From Moniliella sp. 'wahieum' (taxonomy: Eukaryota): a stretch of DNA of 64,000 nt. The stretch is taken from positions 682,001 to 746,000 of the forward strand of contig RSEE01000016.1 in NCBI GenBank assembly GCA_003971905.1, in the 5' to 3' direction. Made by a program: the position numbers and the translations under genes. Each line of letters opens with the position of its first letter. The first letter of the stretch is position 1. This document shows positions 3,339-56,153 of the stretch, in pieces. A model generated the notes under the pieces. The model saw only the letters and a program-made list of their open reading frames with translations, was not told where the DNA came from and made no database searches.

Positions 3339-6300
3339 ATGTCTTCCCCAGCTGCGGCTGCGTCATGGCACGACGGTCCGTCGAGCGCACTCTCCCGTGA
3401 GCTCACCGCCAAGTGCATCTCCATCATCAACCGCTCCGACCCCGACCTGGTCGAGTTCATGCAGGCACAGCTCAGCACCATCAGTCCAGCCCAAGGCCCG
3501 ACCTATGAGCTGCTGGACTACTTTGGCGCCGAGCTAGTTGCCAATTGCAAGGAGGCCGTCGCCACCGCCCAGGCCCCACTCTGGAAAGAGATGTACGCCT
3601 CCACTGCCCCCTGCACCGAGATTGATGCCAAGGGAAACATTATCTACCGCGAAGTCAAGCGCCAAGGTGTGCGCAAGCTCGAGGCCTACGTCAAGGAAAT
3701 GGAGACTGGCACCCGCACTGCAGGCACCGTCGCCGCCCAACTCAACACGGAGCGGGCCCACGAGAACATTAGCAAGCTATGGTCTCTGATCCGCAACGAG
3801 CCTTCTGTCAGCAAACTGGGCAAGGCTACCATCAAGAGCTTGTATAATGAAACCATCCGTTCCCTGGGACCCCCGCCCCAGTCCAAGCACTTTGTCACCT
3901 CGCATCGATCCCGCCGTACATCCGACACGAGCGCGACGGCCGGTCCAGCTTCCGGTACTGTTGTCGATGCGCCTCTGCCGGAGGGCCGCCAATCTTTCCT
4001 CACTATCCAGCGCAAAGTTGCCGGAAAGTGGCAGCCTTCGGCCAAGCTGACCAGCGTATACTTCTCCTTGTTGGACGAGATGGCGCGCGAAGGTCTCACG
4101 TTCGAGAACAAGAACGCCCTCGTACGTTTCCTCCTTTCCCCGCCAGAAGAAGGGTGAACTAACATATGATTGTTTCTGTTTGGACTGGTAGCTCACCGGT
4201 GTTGGCCGTGGATCAATCGGATTGGAGATGGTAAAGGGTCTCTTGGCCGGGGGCGCGAAGGTGGTCATCACCACCTCGTCGTACAGCCGCAAGACGTGTG
4301 AATTTTACCAAAAATTCTTCACTGAAGTCGGCTCCCGTGGTTCTTCGCTCACGATTCTCCCCTTCAACGGATCGTCCAAGCAGGACGTGCAGAGCCTGGC
4401 CGACTACATTTACGACACGATGGGCCTCGACTTGGACTTCGTCTACGCAGGTGCCGCCATCTCGGAGCAGGGCATGCCCATTGACAATATTGGCGATAAG
4501 TCGGAGTTGGCCCATCGTTTGATGATGACCAACGTGATCCGTCTCCTCGGTGCCATCAAGGCCAAAAAGGAGGCCAACGGGTTTGATTCGCGCCCGACCA
4601 GCGTCATTTTGCCCCTGTCGCCCAACCATGGTCTGTTTGGCTCCGACGGTCTTTACTCGGAGTCTAAGATTGGTCTCGAGACGCTCGCCAACCGTTGGGC
4701 CTCCGAGGGCTGGTCTGACTACCTTTCAATCACAGGTGCTTGCATTGGCTGGGTCCGTGGTACGGGCCTGATGGAGCAGAGCAACATCATCGCCCAGGCG
4801 TTGGAAAATCTGGGAATGCGAACATTTAGCCCCATTGAGATGACATTCAACCTACTTGGTCTTTTGCACCCCGTCCTCTCGTCCATTCACAGGTGGAGCC
4901 TCTGTTTGCGGATTTGGGCGGTGGATTTGATCGGTTGCCCAACCTGGCTGAGAAGTCGGCTTCTCTGCGTCAGGGTCTGCAGGAGGATGCGATGTGCAAG
5001 CGGATGGTCAACTTGGATGCCTCGGCGGACTTTGTGGTGATTCGTGGTGCAGCGGCGGAGAAACTGCACCAAAAGGTTTATGTTCAGCCCCGTGCAAACT
5101 TCCGATTTGCTCCGCCCCCCCTCCCTCCGCGCAAGGAGCTCACCCAACTTGCCCGCCTAGCAGGCCAACCTGTGACGGATGAGGAACTGGACAAGATTGT
5201 GGTCTGCACTGGCTTTGCGGAGGTGGGCCCCTGGGGCTCGTCTCGCACACGTTGGGAGATGGAGGCGCACGGTGAGTTTACCATGGAGGGTGCGATTGAG
5301 ATGGCTTGGATCATGGGCTTGATCAAGCACCACAACGGTCCCCTCGCAGGTGCGGCAGGCGCCAACGGTCCCTACGTGGGATGGGTCGACGCCAAATCGG
5401 GCGAGCCGGTGGAGGACAAGGACGTCAAGACACTTTATGAGAAGGACATTCTTGCTCACACGGGCGTCCGCATGGTTGAGCCCGAGATGCTCAGTGGCTA
5501 TGACCCAACCAAGAAGGAGTTTGTTCAAGAGGTTGAAATCACACATGACCTCGAGCCCCTTGAGGTCTCTGCGAGGAAGCGGCCAAGTTTAAGCGTGAGC
5601 ACGGCGACAAGGCAGATGCATGGCAAGAAGGTGAGGTATGGCATGTAATGCTCAAGCGTGGAGCTCGCATCATGGTGCCCAAGGCCATCTCCTTTAACCG
5701 TCTTGTGGCGGGCCAGCTACCCACGGGATGGAACGCGCAGCGCTACGGAATTCCGGACGATATTGCCAACAATGTGGACCGCATCACGCTCTGGGCCTTG
5801 GTCTGCTTGTCAGAGGCGCTGTCATGTCAGGCTTGGGTGCGAGCGCCTACGAGCTGTACAAGTATGTACACCCCTCGGAGGTGGGGGTACTCTCGGCTCC
5901 GGTATGGGCGGCGGCGTGAGTTCCCTCCACAAGATGTTTGTTGACCGTCGTCAAGAGTCGGAGGTGAACAAGGACGTACTGCAAGAAACGTTCATCAATA
6001 CCATCGCTGGTTGGTGCAACCTTTTGATCCTCTCGGCCTCGGGCCCGGTCAAGATCCCTGTGGGTGCATGCGCTACAGGACTTCAGTCGGTCGAGATTGC
6101 GGCCGAGACCATTCTCTCAGGCAAAGCCAAGGTCATGATTGCTGGTGGCTTGGACGACCTTTGCGAGGAAGGTTCGTACGAGTTTGCCAACATGGGTGCT
6201 ACCTCCAACGCTGTTGAAGAGTTGGCTGCTGGGCGCGAGCCTTCGGAGATGTCCCGTCCAACGGCACGCAGCCGTAACGGGTTCATGGAATCGCAAGGGG

Positions 6301-11463: not shown

Positions 11464-11680
11464 TGTAAGACCGGAGGAACCCAAGGGATTGGGTGAAGAA
11501 CCTCTGGAAATGTAGAGCAATGCAATCGCGATGGTGGTGGTTAAGGTCTAAGCCTTGTGCCACACCTAGAGACAGGGGTTCAGACAAGCCTGAGTATACA
11601 CGTGGAGGCTTCGGAGGACAAATCAGGGGTGAAGGGTGATGAGGCGCCTTGGCCTAAGTACGGGACCACGGGTCCCAACA
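11464..11680 (-). repeat. 3' LTR of the copia element (217 bp)
   Basis: TGTAAGACCG...GGTCCCAACA on the + strand, duplicated at 16804-17021. Confidence 0.96.
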
Positions 11681-11745
11681 CCCCCCCGGGCCAAGGGAAC
11701 GAAAGAAGCCCGTTGGCCATCAACAAAAGAAAAGTAGAAAGGGGA

Positions 11746-14700
11746 TCAGCGCGAAGAAAGAGAAGCCAAATCGAAATTGTTACGCGCAGAAATGATCTTG
11801 GGAAGAGAAAGAGGTTTGGTGAACCAGTCAGGGAGATGGTGTGCACCTGGAGTGTAGTGGACTTTAATTTCGCCTCGGTGGATGCGTTCCCGCACCTCGT
11901 GGTACGAGACGTCAATCTCCCGTATTTTGCCTAGGCTGCCGAGCTTTTCGGCCAACGCTTTGGCAGCGGTGTTGTCAACAAAGAGCTCAATCGGGTGATT
12001 AGCCTTGCAGACACCAAGTTCAAACAGTATGTTGCGAATGAATAGAGCATCTCGAAGGCCATCTCCCATGGCTAGGTATTCAGATGCTGCTGTGTTGCTC
12101 ACACCTTGATTTTGGGACTTGGAGCCCCAGGATACAGGCACACCGAAAACAAAAACAACATGGCCCGAAACGGAGTGAGAGTTGCTCTTGTCTGATGCAA
12201 AGGAGGCATCGGTGTGCAGCTCGAGTAGAGGGCGAGATCGGTTGGGTGTGAGGCACAAAGAGTAGTCAGACGTACCGGCGAAGAAACGTAATAGGTCCTC
12301 CGCTGCGCGTCGGTGGGCGGCGGACGGGTCGTCCATAAACCGCGCTAAAAAGGTAGCCGCAAAGAGGGCATCAGGCCGGGACATACGAGCCGCCCACAAG
12401 CTGGATCCGACAATAGAACGGTAGGCACGGTGCTCGTCTCGAGTGGCACGCTTTTCGTGTTCGGGTCGCTTGGGAGGCGGAAGTTGGTGGCCGATTGGAA
12501 GGTAGCGGGGCCGGTGAGGTGATATGTCATGCGCGGCAAGCGTCTCAGCGATGAATTTGGGTTGGCTGATGTACAGTCGTCCATCGATACGGTCGTATTG
12601 GCAGCCGAGATGGAAACGTAGGGGGCCGTTGGACTTAATTTGGATGCTGCGCCTTAATTCCACTAAGAATTCATCATACGCTTCTTGGGACCGACACGCG
12701 ACCAAAAAGTCGTCAGTGTGGACGGCGATTAGGATCAGGCCAAGAGGTTCGGTGCGACGTATGAACAGGCAAGGCTCTGATTTTAGGCTAGTGAAGTGGA
12801 GTCGGTCGCAAAGGAAAGTGCGGAGCCAATCTCCAAAGTTGGCCCCGCTCTGGTGCAGGCCATAGAGACTTTTCTTGAGTCTCCAGCAATGACCGGGCGC
12901 TTCTGGGAAGAAGGGGGGTGGTCGAACATAGACGAGCTCGTTGATATCGGCATAGAGGTAGGCAGCTTCCACATCGGCAGAAAATAAGTGGAGGCCATCA
13001 GCTTCGGCCAACGCAATTAGCGTGTTGACGGCAGCAGTACGAACGGCAGGAGCAAAAGATTTCGCCCATGTGCCAGGAACTTGCCGGTGCCCTCCCACAA
13101 CGTAGCGGGCACGGTACTTGAGGAAGTTAGCATCCGCATCCGTCTTAGTACCTATGACCCACATGCCGGGAAGGGGTTTGATCCCTGGGGGGATGGGTAC
13201 AACTTCCTTCACGTCACGCTCGTCAAAACGCCGAAGCTCGAGGCGCATTGCCTCGAGTACGCCATCAAAGGCAGGGTGACCCACCAACTTCTTGATGTTC
13301 TTGGGGGCCACCGGGACCCCATCGGTGGTCAGTATGACCTCGGTGTCACTTGCCGCGGATTCGATTGCGAGTGCAATGGGGGGCGAGCTTGGCTCCGAAG
13401 CAGGTAGCATGGATGTGTCCGGCGCTGGTCCGAAAATACTCACCAAAGCCTGCATTCCTAGGGCGGAGAGGGCGGCCGGGTTGCCAAAGATGCTAGGGGC
13501 CTTGTTGACGAGCAGGGAAAAGGTGCCATCGCGCAAATTGTCGTTGGCTGGAATGGACAGGTCGAGGGGTGGAGCGTTGATACGCGCTTGGCGAACGGGA
13601 TTGCGACGCACGAGTGCGGGGACGGCTGTATCGGTCAGGGGCACGGTCACGGGGGCGAGCGTGTCGGTGGGGGAGAGAGGGGAGGGGGATAGGGCGGGAG
13701 AGGAAGGGGAAGTGGAAGAGGGAGGGGAAAGCAGGACTTGGTGGCCAGTGTCAACGGCATCTTCTGTGATAGTTTCATTTTCTTCGGCTTGCTTTGCCTG
13801 GCGTTGTGCCATGCCTGCGGGGTCAGATGCAACAGGTTGGGGGGATACATGTGGGGGGTTGGAGTTGGTGGGAGTGGGGCCAGGCTCTGAATTCTCATTT
13901 TCGTTGGCTTGAGCCGGGCGATGTGCCTCTGTTTTTCGTTCTTTTAATTTTCTTTTTCCATGGGGGGCATTGTCTTTCTTACCATTAGTATCGCGGGTCA
14001 GTTCATCTATCGCAAAACGCACACGCCGGGGTGGGGAGCTGTCTGACTTCCCACCAGCACCCATTTCTCCGCCCCCCCGCACCTCTCCGCCACCAGCAGG
14101 GACAAGGGGGTCCAGATGAAAGTGCGTGGGATATTCGGTGGTGTACGGGACATGCGTCCAGGTGGACGGCTTTTTCCAACGGAATCCAACTTGGCCGTCG
14201 TCCTGGTGGATGGCAAAGAGCCACCCCTTCGAACCGCGGCCGTGCCCGTAACCCACCAACATTGCTGGGACGGCCCGCGGACCAAGTTTGCCGCCCTCGC
14301 GTTGGTTGGGCAATAGGTGCAGGTAGGCAAGAGTGCCAAAACCGCGCATGCGAAGGGAGGGTTTGAAGCCATGGTACCGGACAAATCGGCTGTCCCCACC
14401 CAGTGCTTTCGGCGGCGACTGGTTGTGTGCATATGTGGCCGCCAACAAGCTGTGTTCCCACCACTCGTCGGGAGTCAATCTGTTGGCGATTACCATGAGT
14501 CGAGCGCGATCCGTAATCGATCTTATGGCGCGTTCGGCGACCCCATTGGACGCACTTTCGCCAGGATTGGTGCGCTCGCTCACTACTCCCAGCTCGCAGT
14601 AAAACTCGTCCATTGCGGTGGTGAGTTCAGGCGCATTGTCAGAGCGGACCGTCTGAAGGGGGCGGTCGGGATGTTGGCGATGCTCGCGCCGGATGAAGGC

Positions 14701-16697
14701 TTGAAGTTCGGCTGTGGCATCACCCTTGGACACCAGGGGTAGCGTCCAGGTATACCGCGTAAAGTCGTCGACAATGATAAGGGCGTAAGTATGACCCGCC
14801 GCCTTGGCGGGATATGTCAAGGACGTCGAGGTGGAGGAGAGAGAAAGGGCGAATGGTTCGGATTGGGCGTCCAGTCGTGGCGTGGGTGGGGCAGTGGCTC
14901 TGCTTAATGCGCATGGTGCACAGTGCCACGAGGACCGGACTAAAGCGATGTCGCCACTGTTGACCCGTTCGAATGCTGGGTCATCCGACGTGAGGGATGA
15001 AAGTTGATCTAGAGGTGCATGATTCCATCGGATGTGGGCGTTTTTCACCTTGACCAGGGTTGCATCAAGGTTGAGTAGCGAAGTGGCGCTGTTGGCTGTG
15101 GCTGTCGTATTGGGCGCCAGAGTAAGGGAATAGCTTGAGTCGGCGGCGAGACGAAAAGGTTCGCCGTGTCGTCCGAGATAGAGACCATGGCCACCTGGAG
15201 GGATCCAGCTGCCAATGCCTGCGATAGATAGATGGTAAGCGCTGAGCAGGTTGGTCGGGAAGGTGGGGCAGTACAAGCTGCCGGGTAGGTGGATGCGGAT
15301 AGGGGCTCCGTTCTGGGTTTGAATGTACATAGAGATGGTGCCAATGCCTTCAGTGTATGCGATCTGTCCGTTTGCCACTGCTATGGGCTCGCGGTGTGGA
15401 CGAAGATTGATAAACGCACTTCGTTCATTGAATACGGATGGTCTCGCACCTGAATCGTGTTGCGCAGGGAGGTTGGCTGGCTTGGGTGGTGTAGTGGCTG
15501 CCATAGGGGTTACTGCATGGGCAGATGAGGTGGTCTGGGCTGTCGTAGCCGGCCGGCTAAAGTGGCCGCCACGTTGGCCACCACGGTGACTTCCTCTGTA
15601 CCCGCTGCCACCTCGGCCTCGTCCGCGGCCTGTCACCGTACTGCTTGTTTGGCTGTGCGACGTGGCTTCCGAAGGGGCCGTACTGGAGGGAGCTGGGCTT
15701 GAACTGGAGGTACTGCCGTAGTTGGAGCCTTTGAGTTCGCTCACTGCTCGGCGCAATTCGGCGTAGCTGCTGTTACGATGGAGGTGCAACCACCCCTGAT
15801 CAGTAACGCCTTTCCGTAGCATCTGTGCTAGACCAATCTCGTCCAGCTTGGACTTGGACGTCATCTCGTACTGGGTTACCGCCACAGTGAACTCATTCAG
15901 GTATTGGCGGCCCGACTTGGTGCCCATTTTGAGAGTGAGAACCTTTATGAGGATATCACAGATCTCAGTGTCTGAAACGGTGCCGTACAAATCACGCAGA
16001 GCATGATAGTATGCAGACCCTAGAGCCGGCGTGCCATCGCCGGTGATCTGCTGGACGACGTCGGAGTCTATCCACGGGAGTAGAATGTTGGCCAAGTGAG
16101 CGTCCAGTTCTGCGTTATACCCGTCCAGGGCCTTGCCCTGTTCCAGATGCTCACGCGCTCCAGGGATAATCTGGATACGAGGGAGGAAGATCCGGGTCCA
16201 TAACCAAAACGAGCTGTTGTTGTGGAAACGCTCGTGGTACGGCACGTTGTGCGAGTGGCACTACGGAGGAGCTTGTCGGGAGTCAAAGCCCACGGGTTGT
16301 CGTCGACGGCCGGAGTTGACGATAAGGCACCTTCGTTCTTGCTAGCATTGGGTGGATTCTCACATGATAACATGACAATGGCTTCTGTGGTCGTCTTTTC
16401 GCTGTACCCAAGCTTGATACCAGTGTCCTGTAGCTGTTTGAGGGTGATGTGTTCGGGAAACAATTTGAACATGTTGCGAATGCGGTCGGCGAGGGTGGCG
16501 ACGTCGTTCGCGGTGTTGTCGGGGCCCACGGGGGTGGGTTGAGGTGTAGGGGTAGATTCACGCGATGGTGTCAGCGGCGGGGAGGCGTGGTCAACTCCGA
16601 CGGGAGTGGTGCTCTCTTCTGCTCCGGCAGTTGGTGAAGTAGGGGTTGAGGAGTTGAACCAAGACTCCTGAGTCTGAGAGCTCATGATGCTTGCCAT
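11746..16697 (-). CDS. Copia Gag-Pol polyprotein (two provided ORFs joined by a frameshift near 16250)
   Basis: Protease HDSGA. Integrase HIRWNH..CAPC, VDDFTRY, RSDNAPE, SNGVAERAIR, GKLGPRA. RT KYRARYVVGG, DVEAAYL, LKKSLYGLHQSG, HTDD. RNase H HTDASFA, SVSG, SEY, DNTAA, DWFTKPL. Confidence 0.93.
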
Positions 16698-16803
16698 TAG
16701 CTTACGCAGTTCGAGCAAGCGCTTGTGGATAGGGCCGGCAGCGGAGGACCGAAGAGTGTAAGAGTGGAAGGCTCAGGGCTGAGCGTCAAGAGGATTGTAA
16801 CTC

Positions 16804-17021
16804 TGTAAGACCGGAGGAACCCAAGGGATTGGGTGAAGAACCTCTGGAAATGTAGAGCAATGCAATCGCGATGGTGGTGGTTAAGGTCTAAGCCTTGTGC
16901 CACACCTAGAGACAGGGGTTCAGACAAGCCTGAGTATACACGTGGAGGCTTCGGAGGACAAATCAGGGGTGAAGGGTGATGAGGCGCCTTGGCCTAAGTA
17001 CGGGACCACGGGTCCCCAACA
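16804..17021 (-). repeat. 5' LTR of the copia element (218 bp)
   Basis: Near-identical to 11464-11680 and followed by the TSD CCAGA. Confidence 0.96.
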
Positions 17022-18480
17022 CCAGAGTTGGGTCTGGGAACAGAGGCATCTATGTGAGTCGGATGATCACAGTCCACAACGCGGTCCATTCTGGTTCCTG
17101 CCCAGCATGCGCGTCAACGTTCAACGCTTCATCATCCGTCGTGCGCAGCTCTGCCCTCGTCGGCGCAACAGCGCCATCAGTGCCTCAGCTCAGGCCAACC
17201 TCGGTGCTCAGCCAGCCCCAGCCAATGGCGCCAATCGGTAGGTCCTTACTCGTTCAACAGGTCAAGCTCAAGGTCAAGCCGGTCACGTGGAAATGGTTTG
17301 ACTAGCGACCGCCCTCTCACGCTTCATTCACTCCGATGATCGATGAAGGGGGCAGGTGCTGTTCCGCATGTGGGGGCTTACGTCATGCGATATGTGCCCC
17401 CCCAACAGCTGGCCACTAGCGGTGTCATCGATCATCGACCATACATCATGCATCATCTAGAATCGAGCCATCGAGCCATCTGCAATCCCCGGTCCGTGCA
17501 CTTGACAATGCATCTCGGTTCTTGTCTTCCACCACCTTTGCAGACACCATGGCCGCTCCATCGCAAACCGAGTCCAAGGCACCCCTGTATGCAGCTGCTG
17601 ACTTTTGCCTCATTCCGTTTGGAACGGGTTCATCCTCGGTTGGAGCGGAATCGCTGAAGTGCAGCGCGTGCTCGAGTCCTTTACTAGTCAAGGTTTGATC
17701 TACAAGCTCCACGTTTACCGATTGTCATCGTTTGCTATGGCCTAACGTTGATTTCCTATGTGTTGTCGCTCAAAAGTGGATATGGGACGAACCTGGAAGG
17801 CCCCTGGCCGCTTGTCGCGCGCTATCGAGGCCTGCCATGAGCGACTGCACGAAAAGGGTGTTCCTCGGATCGCGACTGACATCCGTATTGGAACCAAGAA
17901 CCCTGCTCTCGGCTACTCTCCTCCTGAGGGAGGAGAGAACGCGCGCAAGGCCCAAAGCGTTGTCCGTCGCTTGGCTGTCGATAACAAGTCGGAAGCCTGA
18001 GCGCCGGATGGAGTTTGCCCGGTGCGGTATCGAATGCAGCACGCTCTGGTAGACATTTTGATGTATGCCAATGCACTCATCTCGTCCCAATGTTGGGCCT
18101 ATGCGCCCTTCGCAAGTCAGGATACTGCTGGAAGCCTGACCATTGTTTGGTCTACTTGGCCACTGCACTTCATTTTGTCGCAGGTCATCGTCATCGTGGG
18201 CTTCACTACCGGACTGGATGGTTACGCTTGCGTCCTGTGTTGTTGGAAGAGAGGTTGTTTCGCCTTTAGTAATGCTAGTAAGCCCATATGATGATGATGG
18301 TCGGAGACTATATATTGTGCTTTTTAATCTGGCAATCAGGGTGATCCTGACGTGGGACGAACGGCTTACCTCCTACTCCCGATGTGGATTCGATAAGGCG
18401 CTCGAGATATTGAGAAAGGCGAAAGAGAGGAGAGATGTTGCTATTTGATGGTTGGGACCTGAGGCCAGTGACTATTGAAT

Positions 18481-18789
18481 ACGAGGAGACCACCGGGCCT
18501 ACGGCCCGGTCTGCTGTGTCGCCACCTTAGCCACGTTCCCCCTTCGCCACGTAGCCACCGTTCCACCGGCCACCGTTCCACGCTGGAACCCTTCCACGCT
18601 GGAAAGTCGAATAATATCACCGATACGCGCTGGTGGGTGGCTGGGAACGTGGCACGGGGCATGCTGATGTAACAGTGCACAGGGGCGTTTGGATCTACCC
18701 TTTCTGAATTCATATCATTGACAGACTTAAGGCTGGGACAGGGGGAACGCTACGTCTAAACCGAACCGTCCATCTTGCGGGGTTACTTG
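18481..18789. repeat. Left inverted-repeat arm of the RT element
   Basis: 18705-18789 matches the reverse complement of 21784-21870 with 1 substitution and 2 one-base indels. Hairpin ACCGGGCC-TAC-GGCCCGGT at 18492-18510. Confidence 0.9.
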
Positions 18790-18879
18790 TATACCGGGTC
18801 AAGGCACGCCCCTCCTCCCCAACCCCCAACTCGCCACCCCCCGCGCCGCGCCCCCGACTGGGCTCCGAACAGCCAACCA

Positions 18880-21790
18880 ATGGCTACGGCGCCGAAACCC
18901 CACGCCCCACTACCCCACGCCCGCGCCGCGCCCCGCGCAGACAGCCCCCCCGCCGCCGCAACCCCGACCCTCAACCCCCCGCGCCCCGCGCACACCGCCC
19001 CCCCGCCGCCGCGGCCCGCCCCCACCACCACCGCCACCAGACGACCGCGCAACCCCTCGACCGAACGGGGCCGACCTCCTTCCCCGTTTGACCGCCCTGG
19101 CCGAGCGCCCAGGCACACGCAAGATACCGCCACACCTGAAGCGCCCTTTCCTCCAGATGCTCGGCCGTTTGGCGGACGCTTACTTGCAGGAGCCCTCGTC
19201 AGCACACCTGATGGATATTCTAGCGGTGCCTAAGGAAGTACTCCGCCACCACAACAAGGACAACAACCTCATCGGGACGTACCCCAACAGCGCCTGGCAA
19301 CTCCCTCCGCCCCCCGACTTCTCAACGCGCGAGGCACTCGACCCAGTCACCAAGGCCGACCGCCTCATTCGGGAGGGCTGCCTCAGCCGCGCAGCAAGTA
19401 CCCCTCGTCGGCCAATCCACCATTGCCCCTCTCACCCCCGAGACCCAGGCAAGCCTGGAAAAGCTCCATCCCGTTGGAGAGGCGAAACCCTTCAGCCTCG
19501 GCCCGGGCACAGCCTTTGGCAACACCACCACCCGCACTCGTCCCACCCACACAGGCCGCGTGGTACCGCCGGCACCACCCTCACCGACGACGGACAGTAA
19601 CCGTATCGTGGTGGACTTGGACGAAATCGACTTTGTTGCCTTGATTGCCACGTTCAGAATCGACGTTGGGGCAGGTCTATCCGGGTGGACCCAGCCCCTC
19701 CTAAGAACGGCCCTTGAATGCAAAGCGCTTCGTCGCCTTTCTCACCGCCCTCACCAAGAGTATTTACCACGGCACCGCCCCAGGACGCGAGCTCCTGTTG
19801 GCCTCCCGCCTCACCCCCCTGGAGAAGGCATCGGGAGGCATCCGCCCCATCGCCTGTGGGGAGCTGATCTACCCCTGTGCGCCAAGGCCATCGCTCGAGC
19901 GATCGCCCCCAACAGCTGGCTTCTCCCCACCCAGTTGGGAGTAGCATCGCAAAACGGGGTGGAGCCTATCGTACGGATGGTCGAGCGCATGACAGCGCCA
20001 GGCGGGGAGAACGATGCGGAACTGGGCGACTTCAGCCACGTCGCCATGCTCGACTTTACCAACGCCTTCAACACTGTGCGCCGTCGCACACTCGCCAAGG
20101 CGCTCCATGCCTACGCCCCCCATCTCCTCACGTTGGGCCGATGGATCTATGGTTCCCCCACCCAGCTCTGGGTCGCGTCGGGCGGAAATGAGACCAACGT
20201 CCTGTCGGCAGAGGGCGTACGGCAGGGCGACCCCCTCGCCCCCTTTTCTTCTCCATCGCAGTGCGGCCCACGCTGGAGAAACTGGAACAGGACCTGCCGC
20301 CGGGGCACCTGGTGATGGCATACCTGGACGACATTACGATCTTCGGTCCAGGGCCAGGCATTACCGGCCTAGCCGCGGAGATTTTGGAAGACGACGCGTC
20401 AGGCCTCAAGCTCAACCTGCGCAAGTGTGTCGAGCGGGACCGGGACCAGATTCGGGAGGATGGTCTGCAGGTTCTGGCACTTGTGTGGGAGGGGTAGACT
20501 GTCGTCGATCGTGGCTCCGGGCCCAACTGGCAAGTCTGAGGGAGAACATGCCTAAGTTTGATGGCATCACCCGCCAGGGACGCCTCTTACTATGGCGGCT
20601 CAGCACTCAGACCAAGCTGCGCCACCTGCTCCGCACCATGCAGATGGAAGGAGAGCTAGACGACGTGCTGGCCGAGATTGATGCCTTCATCTGTACGGAG
20701 TTCAGACGGATCCGGGCGACGAGGATCCCCAAGGTGCCAAGGACGACCACTTCGACATGCTCATGAGCCTGCCTCTTCGACTGGGAGGATGTGCAGCCCG
20801 CTTTACTCGTATATTGCGCCCCACGCCCGTGCCGCGGCCAACGAGGTCACGACTATCTATTACCACTTATGTTGACCGTTCGGGACCGCAAACTGCAAGG
20901 GCCAACGCATTGCGAAGCAACGCCAGCGCTGCCGCGAGATGTGGGAGCAAAGTCGACAGGAGCTGCTCCAGAAGCTGGACGCTGCCGATGGTCGCCATGT
21001 GGTTGAGCACAGCAACCCGCTGAGCCACAACTGGCTCTCCGCCATTCCATCCGTCCCGTACCTCAAGCTCTCTGACCAGCAGGTCCAGGTTGGTCTCCAG
21101 CTCCGCACGCTGTGCCGCACCACGCGCAGCATGTGCAAGTGCGGCGTCATGTCCTCGCTGGAACCACATCATGTCCTGCACCCGCACCCAGGCCAAGTTT
21201 GGTGCGTTGCATGAGGCAGTGCGGGAGCCCATTCTCCAGCTCCTCCGCTCCATCCCCGACACCCACGTCCACAACGAACCTATGGTGGAGGAAGATGGGA
21301 CGAGGCGCGGACGGAAGGCACAGCGCACCGATTACCGCGTGATGGGCCCGGAGCACTGGGGAACCGGAATGGAGGTAGACCACACGCTGCGCGACACGGG
21401 ATCGCAGGAGGCGCAGAGCGCGTACCGGCGGGGGTGCATGAGAGCACTGCGTCGCCTTTGGAACGCCGGGAGAAGGAACTGCTTCGGCTGCTTGAACAAG
21501 CAGAATGCGACAAGAACGCCAAGTACCAGGGACGCACTCAAGAACCGTTTTTCCCCCTGGTTTTGACGACGCGAGGATACTACGGCACCAAGACGGCGGG
21601 CAAGTTGTTTGCGCATTGGAAGGAGTTGGCTACTAAGTCTCAGTGGAAATGGTTCCTCGCTCGTATGTCAACCACGTTCCTCCGTGTCCACACGCGCTTT
21701 CTAGGGTACGGGACCGGATGGCGTGAGCCGGAGGGTCCTGATATCCTGGCGATCCCCTGGTCCCTTAATCTTGGTGGCGCTTCCAAGTAA
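18880..21790 (+). CDS. CRE/SLACS-clade-like non-LTR reverse transcriptase with C-terminal Cys/His motif and restriction-like endonuclease; multiple frameshifts; start codon uncertain
   Basis: RT: ASRLTPLEKASGGIRPIACGE, QLGV, LDFTNAFNTV, GVRQGDPLAP, AYLDD, LKLNLRKC, LPLRLGG. C-terminal part: WLSAIP, CKCG..H..C..H, EP, RTDY..EVD, KNAKY..FFPLVLTTRG. No apurinic endonuclease, integrase, RNase H or tyrosine recombinase motifs seen. Confidence 0.85.
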
Positions 21791-22164
21791 CCCCCGCAAG
21801 ATGAACGGTTCGGTTTAGACGTAGCGTTCCCCCTGTCCCAGCCTTAAGCTCTGTCAATGATATGAATTCAAAAGAGCGGCGGCTTATTTGCCAGCTGCAG
21901 TTTATGTGGTAAGCGTGCCACCCGGCACGTTCCAGTCCACCCGGCGCGTTCCAGTCCCGCTGCTGCACATGGGTGATAAAATTCCGCCCAAGGCGGAGTG
22001 GGGAATACCATTCCGCTCTCCAGCGTGGGACGGTGGAACAGGTGGAACAGTGGCTACGGTGGCGAAGGTGGACGGAGGAACGGTGGCTAAGGTGGCAACG
22101 CAGCACCAAGCACCAAGCTGGGGCAAAGCCCCAGACCGGGCCGTAGGCCCGGTGGTCTTCTAGT
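21784..22164. repeat. Right inverted-repeat arm of the RT element
   Basis: Reverse-complement homologue of 18481-18789. Hairpins at 22118-22134 and 22135-22153, then GGTCTT-CTAG-T. Confidence 0.9.
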
Positions 22165-24139
22165 GAATCTTAAGACATAGAGATTGAGGACTAGTGACAT
22201 GTGACAGGTTATTAAGCGGTACACACGCCCTTGCCAAGACCTAAAGCTATAATAGAGCGTTGCTCCGCAATTGGGCAAACTCGCAGAACCCGATAGGGAC
22301 TGCCGACATCATGGGACTAGAGAATCCAAAGAGGGACACATATTGGAGGCTACTATACTCGATCAATTGTCGATTCCCGATCGCTGGCAGGTGCTGGAGC
22401 TGGATCGACATGCAGGCTGCAAAATAAATAAAGCAGTGAGCGAGAACGTTCACTACGTTTACTGGGCCTAATATAGCATTTTAGTAGGTGTAGTTAGTGT
22501 ACAGGTCAGCCGGTCACCGGTCACATAGGCCACAGGTCACATTGCATGACAGGCCACACGCGTTACAATGTTCAACGTTCAACGTTCAACGTTCATCCAT
22601 CATCACAGGCCGATCATCGATCACTCGATCGCAAGATCTGCAGGCTCTGAGTGCAAAGCAATAATCGGTGATCATCGATCACATGTCACATGTCACATGT
22701 ATGCCACATTTTGGCGCTGGGCGCTAGAACGATTGTCGATAGTCGACAGAGGGCGATATGGACCTAACAGGGTCGGCCCGGTCAACGTCAGCACTCAGCC
22801 GGTCAAATCGAGGCTCGATCTCTTGCATCGAGCCGGCAAGGGGGCAGTGCTGATATGTTTCCCATCACGCGTCACATGCATGTTACACGCCACGCTTATC
22901 CTCGCCACTAGCACTAGCCATGCTTCTGGCCTTTAGATTGACAGAACAACCCTGTCTGGCTTGTTTTCTTCGGGATGCTCCGTTTGGGACTACGCGAGCC
23001 AACAGGACGAACCGGAACGCAGGAGCCCGAACAGGCATGGTCGATGGCCGGTGTAGCTTGTAGGCTGAGCGCTGAGGCGCGAAGACTATGTGGTGCTGGC
23101 GTGACCTGGTGTGGCCCCTTGAGGCAGCCTGAGGAGGGGAGGCGGCCTGGGTACCTAGTGGTGCGAAGCTGCATATCCAACGCGCTGCGCCACTGCTGCG
23201 CCTGACACGGGCAGGCCGCCCGATCGCTACACTGGACGTTGTTGCATTTTGAATCCCGCAGGCCTCATGCCTTGCTCTATGCCATGCACGAGCAGCCGCT
23301 GCAGGTAACGGGGCAACAGAGCAGTGTCAATGCCTGTGCCCTGCCAGAGCACTGCTCCACAGCTGCCACACTGCCCTGCGTGGTAGGGCATTGGGGCAGA
23401 CCGGAGGCAGCACACCGCACTCATGCCCCGAGCTCCGTGGCTGCACGACGATTGCGGAGCTGGGAGCGTGTCTAACTATGCCTGAGCCCATGCTGGGCTA
23501 ATGCGGGGGCGACAACGCACCCTGGCCTCGGTTGCTCTATGCACAGTTCTCCTGCCGTTCCCAGCGACTCCCATCCCGCTCGGAACAACACTCGAGGCGC
23601 AGCACTGGCCAGATGCAGAACGGCCCTGCGCTGTTGTTCCTTCCAGCTTCAACGTACTCATCCTCTCCCACTCGCACAGCCGGGGCGATGGCCTGCGATG
23701 CACGGTGGCGCTTCCTTCACACCGTGCGGTGCTGCACTGCTGCAATGATCGACAAGTGCCCCGTGCCCGCCTGCAGCTGTTCGTTCCTCGACACCCTCGC
23801 CATCGTGCCATGCCCCCGGGCCTCTTGCGAGTCAGAGTGTGTGGGATACGAGCGGGCTTTCCATAGCCTGTGAGTGACACATAAGGTAAGGTGCCACGCG
23901 CCACCCACCACCTTGGCGACAACTTCAGTCACTCTAGTCACTCTGTCCCATTTTATCTGGCTGCCTTTTCTGACTTTTGTTAGTCCCCCCCCCGCCTTCC
24001 TTTCTTCCACCAGTCCTTCCTGCCCCCATCCCTGACCAAGACCACGTTCGCCTTCCCATCACGCTCTCTACTCTGGACGTCCCCAGTATCTCTTTTGCTC
24101 TCGATTCGCCAACGCCTGCCTTCTCCCATTCCCGCAACC

Positions 24140-24976: not shown

Positions 24977-25689
24977 AGGAAACGGGACACTTTCTGTTCT
25001 TCCATGTGAATGTTTGCCACCTTCGTTGGCCTCGCTTCTGTGCTCTGGCATTGGTCCCACATCTCCTTACCTCCTCATCTCGCGGGTTTTCAACATCTTA
25101 TATCTCTGCCGATACAGTAAAACCCCCCATTCCTATGCCGTTCCCTATTACCCCCTTCCCGCCTCTCCTCGCATATCGTCTCTCATGCCTGAGACGCCCT
25201 CATCACGGGTTTGCCTGTGTCCTATTCCTTCCCTCCCCCATATCTCGCTACGGCGGAGATTCGGTTTCCTGTTGATTACGGATTCTTGCTGCTTATCCAG
25301 AATGTCAGTTGCTCCCACCCATTGATGTATGCAACAAGTGCTGGGACTTGCGGTTCCATAGGTAGGACAAGGTGCCTTATCATATGTCACCCCCTGTATC
25401 ACTTCTTTTGACCTAACCGAAGCCCCTACACTTGTATACTCCGGTTTATTCGCGTTCCTGTCTTTTCAAGGTGTGGCACAATGCTTAGACGTGAACCACC
25501 GCCAACAACGCCATTGTATATCAATACTTCTCCAGAATTTCTCTACCCATTCGGTCTTGCAACAAGTTCTTTATTACGACAGCTCTTTCTTTCCATATCC
25601 TTGCGGAAGTTGGCCTGCCTTTTGCTTTGCATGCGCCACCATCCAAAACCTAGAGGAGCTTGTACCCGAGTCGGCAAGTGCCGAGCTAT

Positions 25690-26402: not shown

Positions 26403-26430
26403 TTGAACGTTGAACGTTGAACGTTGAACG
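26403..26430 (+). repeat. (TTGAACG)4 tandem heptamer
   Basis: Read directly. The same unit occurs in reverse orientation as (TTCAACG)3 at 22571-22591. Confidence 0.9.
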
Positions 26431-26959
26431 TTGATAGACTGAATGTCCTGGCGTTGACTTGTTTATCTTCACACGTATAGATCTCGTGAAAGGTCCCTCG
26501 TACCATCATACCAATGCCAGTCCAACAGATGATCACCTGGTGTGGCTTGTGTCCCCCCCCCATATCAGATGATCGATATGGCAGTCGACCTGCTGGGGTC
26601 GAAGGGAAGCGAATACCCACAGGCGTCTTTTTCACTGAACGTGTTGAAATTTGTAAGACATGGACCAACCATCGATCATCGCACACCTTTGACCATTTCA
26701 AATCTCAAGCCTGGTGGAATGTGCTGCTTCGCGCCCAGGCTCAGTAGCTTGGTCTGTGCACTGCCCGTTTCGGCCCCAGTTTGCGTGAAAGACAGGTGTT
26801 TTCTGCCCCGCAGCCATCACTAGGTTCAGCGCCCAACGTCAACCAACTGCGTTTGCTCTCTCAGCTCGCTCGCTCTGTCTACCACCTAAAGCAAGGCCAT
26901 TCTCTTTGCTTCCCGTCCTCCACCCCCCAAGACCACCATTCATTCACCTGCCCCAAATC

Positions 26960-53863: not shown

Positions 53864-56153
53864 AGTGAGCAAGTAGGGGCGAGGGCGACTGGGGAGGGTG
53901 AGGCGAAGAAGGCGGCGGTGAGGGGTAAGAGGTGGCGGGGACGGAAGAAGGGAGCGCGCACGGAAGAGCGCAGTGCGTAGGCGAGCGCAGCCCGCAGGTC
54001 ACTCACTAGCACTGGGCTCAGCGAGCGCTCGGTCGGAGCATTGGGCTAAGATGAACGTGAACGTTCAACCTGAACTTGAACCGTTGTTCAGCCGCTGAGT
54101 CGCTGAGGCTCAGCCAGTGCGCAGCCTGAGGCGCTGCGCGCTGAGCAGCTGCGCACCAGCCACCCCAGCGCTGAGCAGCTCACCGGTCTCTATCATCGAC
54201 ACCCATCATAGTCGCTACTCACTGGTCGCCGCAGTCGGATTGCCGCAGCAAGCACGGCGATGACAGGGCACAGCAGGGCACAGCAGGCACAGCGGAGAGC
54301 ATCGCACCATGCATCATCCAATCCATGACACCATGGCCGCACAGGGGCCGTGTGCCGGGAACCAGGCGACGCTGCGCAATCGCAGCTGCGGGAAGCTGGG
54401 GAACGAGGAATGCTTAATCTGGAAAGAGTTGGGCGATTTCAATTTCAGTTGCCATGGCCGTAGCTGCTGACCAGCGCCGAGGCTCAGCGCTTAGGCTGAG
54501 CCCTGCTGAGGAGCATCAGCGGCTGACGCTTCCTAGGACCTGACCGGCTTAACAAGCGGAACCCCAGTCGTCCTGCGTGGCCTTCGCCCCGCAGACAGCG
54601 CCCGTGGCGCAGCAGCAGCGGCAGCTGAGGCTAAGTACGTCCACGTGGGTGCTTTCTCTCCAACACACGAGCGTGGCACCCTACTACAGGTCATCCCTTT
54701 GGCCATCTCGCCTTTGCCCAAACAACCGTGAGCGCCGGCACGAGAACTGAACGGCTTTCTTGGCAGTATTGTCTCTTAGTCCCTGGCGTCGCAAGTGCTG
54801 TTGCTAGCCTTGCTCTGGCTTGCGGGGAAACAGCTTAGCCTCTTGCAACTGAAACAGTGGCTCACTTCTTGGTCAAAGGGGGCTCGTGCCTCACCGTGCA
54901 CACTCATCAGGCCTTGAACCAACCCCAGCCTGCCCCTGCTGGCAGCAGTACTCTCTGCTCGTACCTCATTAAATCGCTCTTCGGTATCTCTACGGTGCTC
55001 CGATGCGCAGTAAGACAGACCGAGCTCGCAATATCTTCATCCTTCCTTCATTTCGTGTAACAGTTAATCGTGTGAACCCGTCCTTTCCATCGGAGTATCC
55101 TTCAACACTGGTATCAACTGATTAGATCCCATGGATCCATCTGCGATCACCTGGTCCGTTGTGCTCCCTTCTCATCGTCCATTGCCGCTGCGATGTCTCT
55201 TTCTCCATGTTTACAGGGGCACAGTGGTCGTCTCACCGACCCCCACGGCCCAGAATCCCAATACTTACTTGGAAAGTCTAAGTGCCACTGGCCAATTAGC
55301 TGGCCGATCTCGAAACCAAGAGAAGGAGAGTTTACCCGCCTCGAAGTCCAGCTAGGAAGGCATGAAGTGCACCTGTCCGATGTATGGCAACAGACAAGGG
55401 GGTTTCATCCACCGACATTATTGCCACACGAGTTGGGTATCTTACCTCTGGCAAAATATATGGCAAAACAAACCCGGAAAATGAGAGGAGCATCGTGTCC
55501 AGTGTAGCAATATGGCTGTCACTGATTCGGTCTCAAAAATTGCCTTATTCTGTTCTTTGTGGCGAACATATGCCGCATCGATGCAGCCACAAAACCCACA
55601 CCGATGATTAAGTGCTCTCTTCCCCACGACAGGTTCTTTGTCTTTTGGCCTCCGGAACGACCTTTCATGTGAACTCTCCCAGGCGAGTAGGTCTGTACAA
55701 GAACATTGATAGACATTCAGCGTCGTACTCACGCATATTGTCCCATGTCTTCCGTGCTACTCGCGGTCGAGTCGAATGCGCCCGAAAGGCTTGTGAATAA
55801 TACAAACCAACACGCAACTAATATATATGCTCGATGGTGCGGGCGGGTATGGAATGTAACGTATGCCTTTATCGGGTGGCGGGACCACGACCGACCTTGG
55901 GGCATCTTGGTAGGGAGTTTGGGCATGCCAACGAGTGGAGGGTTAAGTTGTGGACTGGTGGGGGGAAGCCGGGGGTAAATGGATACCTTTTGCACTCGGC
56001 ACCCTACTCCTCATTTAACCCCAATTCCGCCTCGGCGGAAAAACAGGGTGGGTGTGGCCTCGTCAGCGACTGCGAGTTGAGGAGGAGCTCCCATAACCCA
56101 CCACTGCACCTACACCAACACCCACCCCAACACCACTACCCCAGCTGCCCACA

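Follow-up and report, generated by a model that had tools for sequence, protein, structure and literature searches.

A dead R2-like retrotransposon with an inverted second copy of its 3' untranslated region in a fungal chromosome

The closest described relatives of the element reported here are retrotransposons that lack long terminal repeats (non-LTR retrotransposons), also called long interspersed nuclear elements (LINEs), of the R2 kind, which encode a restriction-like endonuclease (RLE) and include CRE-type elements such as Cnl1, MoTeR and FoTeR. The element itself is a decayed unit at 18481-22164 of a 64,000-nucleotide stretch of Moniliella sp. 'wahieum' (assembly GCA_003971905.1, contig RSEE01000016.1, positions 682,001 to 746,000 of the forward strand), called the window throughout, from whose first letter all coordinates are counted. 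Eel UnaL2 is a LINE of the stringent type, with a 3' tail that is recognised by its own reverse transcriptase (RT), and the twin priming of L1, reportedly described by Ostertag and Kazazian in 2001, is said to invert an internal part of the same RNA and to duplicate nothing. The R2 protein binds a small structured core of 40 nucleotides (nt) within its 3' untranslated region (UTR), carries out target-primed reverse transcription (TPRT) from this core with a start at the RNA 3' end, and is capable of template jumping (PMC10499050). Cnl1 of Cryptococcus has a full length of 3,494 bp, is frequently 5'-truncated, and is flanked by target duplications that are absent or 1-12 bp long (bioRxiv 10.1101/2021.08.11.455996). 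In Penelope-like elements an inverted, 5'-truncated copy adjoining the 5' end yields inverted repeats around the unit, and the account that describes them says that such structures are not seen in the TPRT of non-LTR elements (PMC8557442).

With the R2/RLE group the window element shares a single open reading frame (ORF) that encodes an RT, a C-terminal CCHC knuckle and a PD-(D/E)XK endonuclease, as well as a structured 3' UTR; the N-terminal C2H2 finger is carried by its relatives. Its size, about 3.4-3.7 kb, compares with the full length of Cnl1, and the target duplications are short or variable. What sets this copy apart from the group is an inverted second 3' UTR at its 5' side, together with the lack of poly(A), of an N-terminal finger and of a recognisable specific target such as ribosomal DNA, the spliced-leader gene or the telomere. 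The common motif layout and one telomere-adjacent relative (L003, below) are hints of the CRE-type clade rather than a placement among CRE, R2 and NeSL by a tree. The likeness to Penelope-like elements is confined to insertion architecture, in which inverted repeats enclose the entire unit: the window RT is R2-like and accompanied by CCHC and RLE, not telomerase-like with GIY-YIG, and the unit has neither a pLTR tandem nor a hammerhead ribozyme that Rfam could find. Like the stringent-type 3' tails of R2 and UnaL2, the unit ends in a conserved stem-loop beside the 3' terminus without a poly(A) tail, although recognition by the RT is putative here and the twin-hairpin form has no Rfam family. 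L1 twin priming likewise involves priming from the second target strand and an inverted segment at the 5' side, whereas the window unit has two diverged copies of the very 3' end. Among the papers listed by a literature search, none describes, to judge by title and abstract, terminal inverted repeats in an RLE LINE.

The unit is, on the evidence of its sequence, a dead R2-like non-LTR retrotransposon of the RLE type in a fungal chromosome. Its body is a single ORF with 8 frame changes between 19073 and 21694, as read from stop-to-stop frames and from tblastn against relatives; the first ATG is at 18880, the stop codon at 21788-21790, and the N-terminal part is rich in proline. Pfam RVT_1 matches the RT region in two frames, with E-values of 1e-3 and 2.8e-4; as the frameshifts split the domain, neither match reaches the Pfam cut-off. 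Supporting this identification, tblastn gives 36-38% identity between the RT region and the relative P0001, and the proteins P0001, P0003, P0005 and P0008 align to the window over approximately residues 204-985, across the 8 frame changes. The motif pieces of the knuckle and endonuclease were read by eye in the window translations, against the published REL motif and an R2 alignment.

A search of longer proteins gave 67 relatives (P0001-P0067) at E <= 0.001 among 7,997 scored candidates, the best of which are 36-38% identical and approximately 1000 amino acids (aa) long. They are labelled 'hypothetical protein' or 'reverse transcriptase-like protein', and the sole organism named is Aureobasidium melanogenum, for a 'hypothetical protein'. 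A profile built from 30 of the 67 matches R2 proteins in PDB at 4e-32, as against about 1e-10 for L1 ORF2, and a separate, third aligned stretch of this profile spans the R2 CCHC knuckle and restriction-like endonuclease. Furthermore, the layout of REL-domain motifs known from MoTeR, FoTeR, SLACS and CRE (PMC12857005) fits 41 of the 67.

The copy in the window is probably 5'-truncated, because the N-terminal finger of its closest relatives is missing: no C2H2 finger was found in any of the three frames of 18441-19700. The motif is present in 24 of 48 Met-initiated relatives and, by my own tally, in 23 of the 27 that have at least 300 residues before the SGWT anchor, including the closest (P0001, P0006 and P0008). 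Intact relatives have it close to their start, from the first few residues to about residue 30 (M-A-T-T-R-G-R-C-P-R-C is one example). In the window, homology sets in at residue 204 of P0001, and the 94 codons that separate this point from the left arm are of proline-rich low complexity and consist partly of 53-nt repeats. Two such 53-nt units, 81% identical, lie side by side at 18926-19031 in the proline-rich part of the ORF and may be a linker expansion that took place before or after truncation.

The body is bracketed by two imperfect inverted arms, 18481-18789 (309 bp) on the left and 21784-22164 (381 bp) on the right (Table 1). The inner stretch of the repeat (18702-18789 against 21784-21873) is 95.6% identical, and further blocks follow outward as far as 18481 and 22164. 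Since the inverted repeat starts 4 nt ahead of the ORF stop codon, the right arm is the element's own 3' UTR. The left arm is a second, diverged copy of this 3' UTR in inverted orientation; it breaks off 7 nt into the ORF, and the LINE body follows directly, with its 5' side at the junction. Going from the inner to the outer blocks, left and right arms are 97%, 49% and 88% identical, then separated by a 28-nt gap, then 94% identical, after which homology breaks off sharply at 18481/22164, falling from the 31 of 33 matches of the outer block to 4 of 21 in the flanks. Compared with the middle of the arms, where ungapped identity is 64%, the inner block is conserved (P = 2e-13).

Table 1. Coordinates of the LINE unit, its arms and its terminal features in the window.
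Feature	Position	Strand	Basis or match
Left arm: diverged 3' UTR copy in inverted orientation, with the final 7 nt of the ORF (CAAGTAA)	18481..18789	-	Inverted-repeat alignment
Body of decayed non-LTR (LINE) retrotransposon	18790..21790	+	ORF frames, Pfam, protein relatives, tblastn
Reverse-transcriptase domain, including YLDD at ~20325-20336	19371..20476	+	RVT_1 fragments, tblastn
Remnants of CCHC zinc knuckle and restriction-like endonuclease	21134..21526	+	CxC...HxxxC, LHE, NEP, RTD...EVD, KxxKY over three frames
Right arm: the element's 3' UTR (inverted repeat itself from 21784)	21791..22164	+	Alignment, self-BLAST
Inner arm block (right-arm coordinates)	21783-21873		86/89 match
Arm block (right-arm coordinates)	21874-22017		55/113 ungapped match, plus 31 gap columns
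Arm block (right-arm coordinates)	22018-22103		66/75 match, plus 11 gap columns
Arm block (right-arm coordinates)	22104-22131		28 nt, right arm only
Outer arm block (right-arm coordinates)	22132-22164		31/33 match
Flanks past the arm ends			4/21 match
Left terminal hairpin, 8-bp stem and 3-nt loop	18492..18510	-	Sequence and pattern search
Second hairpin, right arm only, 7-bp stem and AAA loop	22118..22134	+	Sequence, alignment, folding
Right terminal hairpin, 8-bp stem and GTA loop	22135..22153	+	Sequence, pattern search, folding
11-nt tail GGTCTTCTAGT after the terminal hairpin	22154..22164	+	End of arm homology = 22164
Putative target-site duplication GAAT, left copy	18477..18480	.	Directly outside the independently defined inverted-repeat end
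Putative target-site duplication GAAT, right copy	22165..22168	.	Read from sequence

As a sense RNA of 374 nt the right arm folds at -166.3 kcal/mol, compared with -142.5 +/- 6.1 for shuffled sequences (z = -3.88; 0 of 100 as good), and at its 3' end a pair of neighbouring GC hairpins is followed by an 11-nt tail that lacks poly(A). Taken as minus-sense RNA, the left arm has no unusual structure (z = -0.63; 23 of 100 shuffles as good). The initial annotation had singled out these tips, and its description of them is accurate. On the right, the hairpin ACCGGGCC-GTA-GGCCCGGT occupies 22135-22153, and after it come GGTCTT, then CTAG at 22160-22163 and T at 22164; on the left, the identical 19 nt stand on the minus strand at 18510-18492 and are followed by GGTCTC, CTCG and T (the complement of A18481). 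The second hairpin (CTGGGGC-AAA-GCCCCAG, 22118-22134) occurs on the right only, with no left counterpart, and falls in or next to the 28-nt stretch that is absent from the left arm. Within the 64 kb, a search for the terminal hairpin that allowed up to 2 mismatches found exactly these two sites, with 0.04 expected and two or more in 0 of 100 shuffles; the two are not independent, because both are the tips of one long imperfect inverted repeat. It also holds that the hairpin was kept while its neighbours diverged, as judged from the matches of the outer block against the ungapped mid-arm identity (P = 9e-5), although the inner block of 89 nt is kept even better. The terminal 55 nt on the right, with both hairpins, have a folding energy of -30.4 kcal/mol, where shuffled sequences reach -20.2 +/- 2.8 (z = -3.6; 1 of 200 as good), and the terminal 60 nt of the left arm, in the equivalent sense, give a z of -0.60.

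Rfam yielded no match anywhere in the window at gathering scores and, when relaxed to E <= 5 over 18300-22400, only three matches, all implausible (a miRNA, a snoRNA and a piece of a lncRNA). As nothing plausible was returned, no ribozyme of the hepatitis delta virus or hammerhead kind and no R2 element family was found by this route. Further copies of the arms were sought through the spurious 134-aa minus-strand frame of the right arm, which gave 11 candidates in the protein collection, none at E <= 0.01. In addition, the profile of 30 relatives was run over genome contigs, where pattern matches in 36 stretches led to 11 confirmed loci (L001-L011), all of them distant (26-46% aa identity). 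The arm sequence of the window is shared by none of these 11 loci, the only nucleotide match being one of 30 nt (E = 0.001), and a stricter hairpin pattern has no match in them. One candidate in L011, a GC hairpin close to the poly(A) end that shares the GCC-GTA-GGC core, was rejected as chance; its flanking stems are in swapped order relative to the window hairpin, and this 9-mer is expected 0.45 times per 64 kb.

Do the tips resemble anything other than the 3' end of a LINE? Helitrons begin with 5'-TC and end with CTRR-3', have a subterminal hairpin, insert between A and T, and encode a RepHel protein; they have neither terminal inverted repeats nor a target duplication. The initial annotation saw the signature of a Helitron 3' end at both tips, which stands for the right end, where a GC-rich hairpin is followed after 6 nt by CTAG, in keeping with CTRR, and by T, but not for the left end, where the motif is CTCG. 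It had gone on to suggest that the ends could serve a Rep/helicase in trans, to which the retention of the hairpin at both ends lends some appeal, or that two non-autonomous Helitrons bracket an RT. I regard Helitron-type termini of either description as the least probable of the explanations weighed here, close to negligible. The second version is excluded because the right arm begins at the stop codon of the RT gene itself, and the first meets hairpins that are the tips of inverted arms of 309 and 381 bp, the right one being the UTR of the RT gene. The 'host T' at each end still lies inside the inverted repeat, the unit has no 5'-TC terminus, and a direct repeat, GAAT, stands on both flanks. 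No domain of the Helitron_like_N, Rep or PIF1-type helicase kind was found in the 110 scanned of 171 stop-to-stop ORFs of at least 130 aa or in the other window translations scanned; the 61 ORFs left out of the helicase scan overlap longer frames or lie inside the Copia and LINE bodies.

A scan of the window for the signature as such (a GC-rich stem of at least 7, with CTRR and T 2-12 nt downstream) found it twice, one of the sites being the right end of the unit, against 0.47 +/- 0.71 in 100 first-order Markov simulations (maximum 4). The likeness of the hairpin and CTAG to a Helitron 3' end, being at about chance level, is therefore coincidental. The only other site with this signature, on the minus strand at 54482-54501 (CTGGT), has no relation to any repeat and so shows how often the signature arises by chance.

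The initial annotation had offered an alternative, that the hairpin is an RNA signal recognised by the RT, and it is this that I favour for the terminal stem-loop, because the RT is R2-like and the R2 protein binds the structured core of its own 3' UTR. Together with the tail, the stem-loop would let the RT recognise the RNA and place the RNA 3' end for TPRT. The folding z-scores and the conservation of the outer block speak for such a role indirectly.

What kind of event, then, could leave one 3' tail twice in a single unit, each copy facing outward? The explanation I prefer, with confidence that is about even, is an R2-like LINE with an inverted, truncated second copy of its 3' UTR at the 5' side, probably the product of one integration primed from both DNA ends. 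The endonuclease would cut both target strands, and cDNA synthesis would be primed by each free 3'-OH at the 3' end of an RNA, in one case the LINE RNA and in the other a further RNA, shorter or variant, that has the same tail. The short inverted cDNA and the 5'-truncated LINE cDNA would then be joined by a template jump, and the outcome would be a unit with both 3' tails facing outward and one short target duplication, GAAT, around the whole. The unoccupied target site would read ...TATTGAATCTTAAG... In favour of a single event, GAAT lies directly outside both ends of the composite unit; with the repeat ends set independently, such a direct repeat on both flanks is estimated to arise by chance approximately once in 256 for fixed ends.

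Two other ways of producing an inverted segment were considered and rejected. Snap-back synthesis on the element's own cDNA predicts an inverted copy of the flank and identical arms, but the flank repeat is direct and the arms differ. Twin priming of the L1 type inverts an internal segment, and here it is the tail that is duplicated.

Several observations weigh against the preferred explanation. The analysis covered a single copy; self-BLAST found no second copy of the LINE unit or of its arms within the window. The duplication of 4 bp is short, and an alternative of 8 bp, with 7 of 8 positions identical (TATTGAAT at 18473-18480 and TAGTGAAT at 22161-22168), would shift the 3' terminus; on that reading the true terminus would be 22160, and half of the 'CTAG' would derive from the target. 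The arms are very unevenly diverged, as the succession of blocks shows, whereas uniform decay of two copies of one RNA predicts otherwise. Dual priming therefore needs an extra assumption, either a second, variant template RNA or later gene conversion or homogenisation of parts of the arms. The variant RNA could have come, for example, from another subfamily, or from a tail-only partner with its 5' end near the stop codon.

Uneven divergence also speaks for a history in two steps, in which an older, inverted and heavily 5'-truncated copy, or a tail-only non-autonomous partner with the 3' UTR of the LINE, was already in place when the LINE later landed exactly at its inner end. The difference between the arms goes well beyond what the estimated decay of the body suggests, as would be expected of different ages or subfamilies; 5'-truncated copies are usual for such elements, those of Cnl1 running from 25 bp to 3,494 bp (bioRxiv 10.1101/2021.08.11.455996); and L004 holds nested and inverted fragments of a related element. 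However, the second insertion must have hit the junction exactly, and there is no direct repeat around the LINE alone (ACTTG against GAATC), whereas GAAT surrounds the composite. I consider two separate insertions unlikely.

The other difficulty for dual priming is the inner edge of the repeat, which lies within 7 nt of the stop codon: this is a coincidence for random truncation and fits a built-in, UTR-only terminal inverted repeat better. In a genuine LINE family with such repeats, the left arm would be the normal 5' UTR and the right arm the 3' UTR, and the whole unit would be copied at each retrotransposition; the complementary inner 89-nt and outer 33-nt blocks would let the RNA ends pair into a panhandle, or would place one and the same protein site at either DNA end. 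Several features agree with this. Block-wise conservation, at 97% and 94% against 49-88% between, is expected if selection acts on pairing or on a binding site common to both arms; the inverted repeat spans exactly the 3' UTR and ends 7 nt into the ORF; GAAT flanks the unit; and an ATG in good context follows 91 nt past the left arm. Against it, the N-terminal C2H2 finger of the closest relatives is missing and the copy looks 5'-truncated, the RNA of the left arm is not unusually structured (z = -0.63), and none of the papers listed by the literature search is, by title or abstract, on a LINE with terminal inverted repeats. Moreover, none of the 9 related loci of at least 2 kb has arms that bracket the ORF, including L002 and L007, which have a complete ORF with at least 250 nt on either side; the test is weak, since these relatives are distant (26-39% aa identity) and most of the contigs end near the ORF. 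The same count weighs against dual priming as well. Because of the mosaic divergence of the arms and the repeat edge within 7 nt of the stop codon, a family with built-in repeats stays alive as an explanation, albeit an improbable one.

A broader version of the same idea, to which I also assign a low probability, is an R2-like LINE lineage that regularly gains inverted 3'-UTR arms, either through priming on both strands in the Penelope manner or through a built-in 5'/3' panhandle that the RT requires, with the terminal hairpin as the priming signal at both DNA ends.

Terminal inverted repeats and a short direct flank repeat would also suit a DNA transposon with such termini, a foldback element or one resembling a miniature inverted-repeat transposable element (MITE), with a LINE inserted inside, or a DIRS-like retroelement. 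The start of the repeat 4 nt before the stop codon would leave the LINE without a UTR of its own, and for the same reason I rejected a MITE or a pair of Helitrons as host of the LINE. No transposase or tyrosine recombinase was found in the window translations scanned. As for DIRS, the RT is R2-like, not LTR/DIRS-like, no RNase H domain was found, and there is no internal complement of the arm tips beyond matches of 14-16 nt, a size expected by chance. These possibilities, taken as one explanation, are very improbable.

Several of the related loci deserve description in their own right. Short poly(A) ends were seen in L007 and L011. In L003, an AT-rich 3' UTR of 132 nt runs straight into (AACCCT)n / CCCTAA telomere repeats at the contig end (3823-3874), which suggests that this member of the group targets telomeres, as described for MoTeR, FoTeR and Cnl1. 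L004 has a 414-bp palindrome (3532-3945) at the end of an intact ORF, with arms of 157 nt that are 98% identical and 100 nt apart; the arms take in 72 nt from the ORF end together with 85 nt of 3' UTR, and A7 closes the inverted fragment. Elements of this kind thus do have inverted tail fragments around them, although here the tails face each other, opposite to the arrangement in the window. L005 has a 39-nt inverted repeat (253-291 / 1685-1723, 85%) exactly where the RT-homologous segment (287-1687) begins and ends within a longer open frame.

L002 (1-7162) and L004 (1-5742) are intact relatives with ORFs of 1004 and 1200 aa and 81% nucleotide identity over 2.8 kb, the homology of L002 to L004 ending at 4505, before the end of the ORF. 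Both lie at the ends of long contigs binned as beta-proteobacterial metagenome-assembled genomes, and the L002 element sits amid fragments of bacterial genes (IS1595 transposase, acetate kinase C-terminus, Omp85 and Clp_N). Chimeric assembly or mis-binning looks the likelier cause than a LINE residing in a bacterium. Similarly, an identical 369-nt RT fragment of the LINE group, with 39-46% aa identity to P0001, occurs in L001 (307-675) and L010 (1-369), on tiny contigs in assemblies of the unrelated bacteria Absicoccus porci and Nonomuraea sp., and is probably shared eukaryotic contamination.

The surrounding window is fungal nuclear DNA of approximately 59% G+C, with intron-split genes, among them those for the fungal endoplasmic reticulum chaperone Rot1, the alpha chain of a fungal type-I fatty-acid synthase with its ACPS domain, ELO, actin, a kinesin and ribosomal protein S24e. 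Just upstream of the LINE unit is a young Copia-type LTR retrotransposon (11464-17023, minus strand), whose LTRs (11464-11682 and 16804-17023; 219 and 220 bp) are 99.5% identical and whose pol ORF (11749-16260, minus strand) is open over approximately 1,400-1,500 aa with the domains RVT_2, rve, Pol_BBD and SH3_retrovirus. A diverged LTR-like piece (68%) is found at 25338-25552, and an inverted match of 30 nt (96.7%) between 22566-22595 and 26404-26433 is made of short tandem units of the CAACGTT type.

For the unit itself, a false lead has been removed: no retroelement that uses rolling-circle machinery is present here. The object is instead a new R2-like RLE LINE, now dead, whose 5' side carries an unusual inverted tail. 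If further copies show the same outward-facing tails, the tandem/inverted insertion architecture, until now linked with Penelope-like elements, would for the first time be known from a LINE, and, on a question reportedly under study for R2 at present, there would be a natural case for how RLE-type enzymes handle the second DNA strand.

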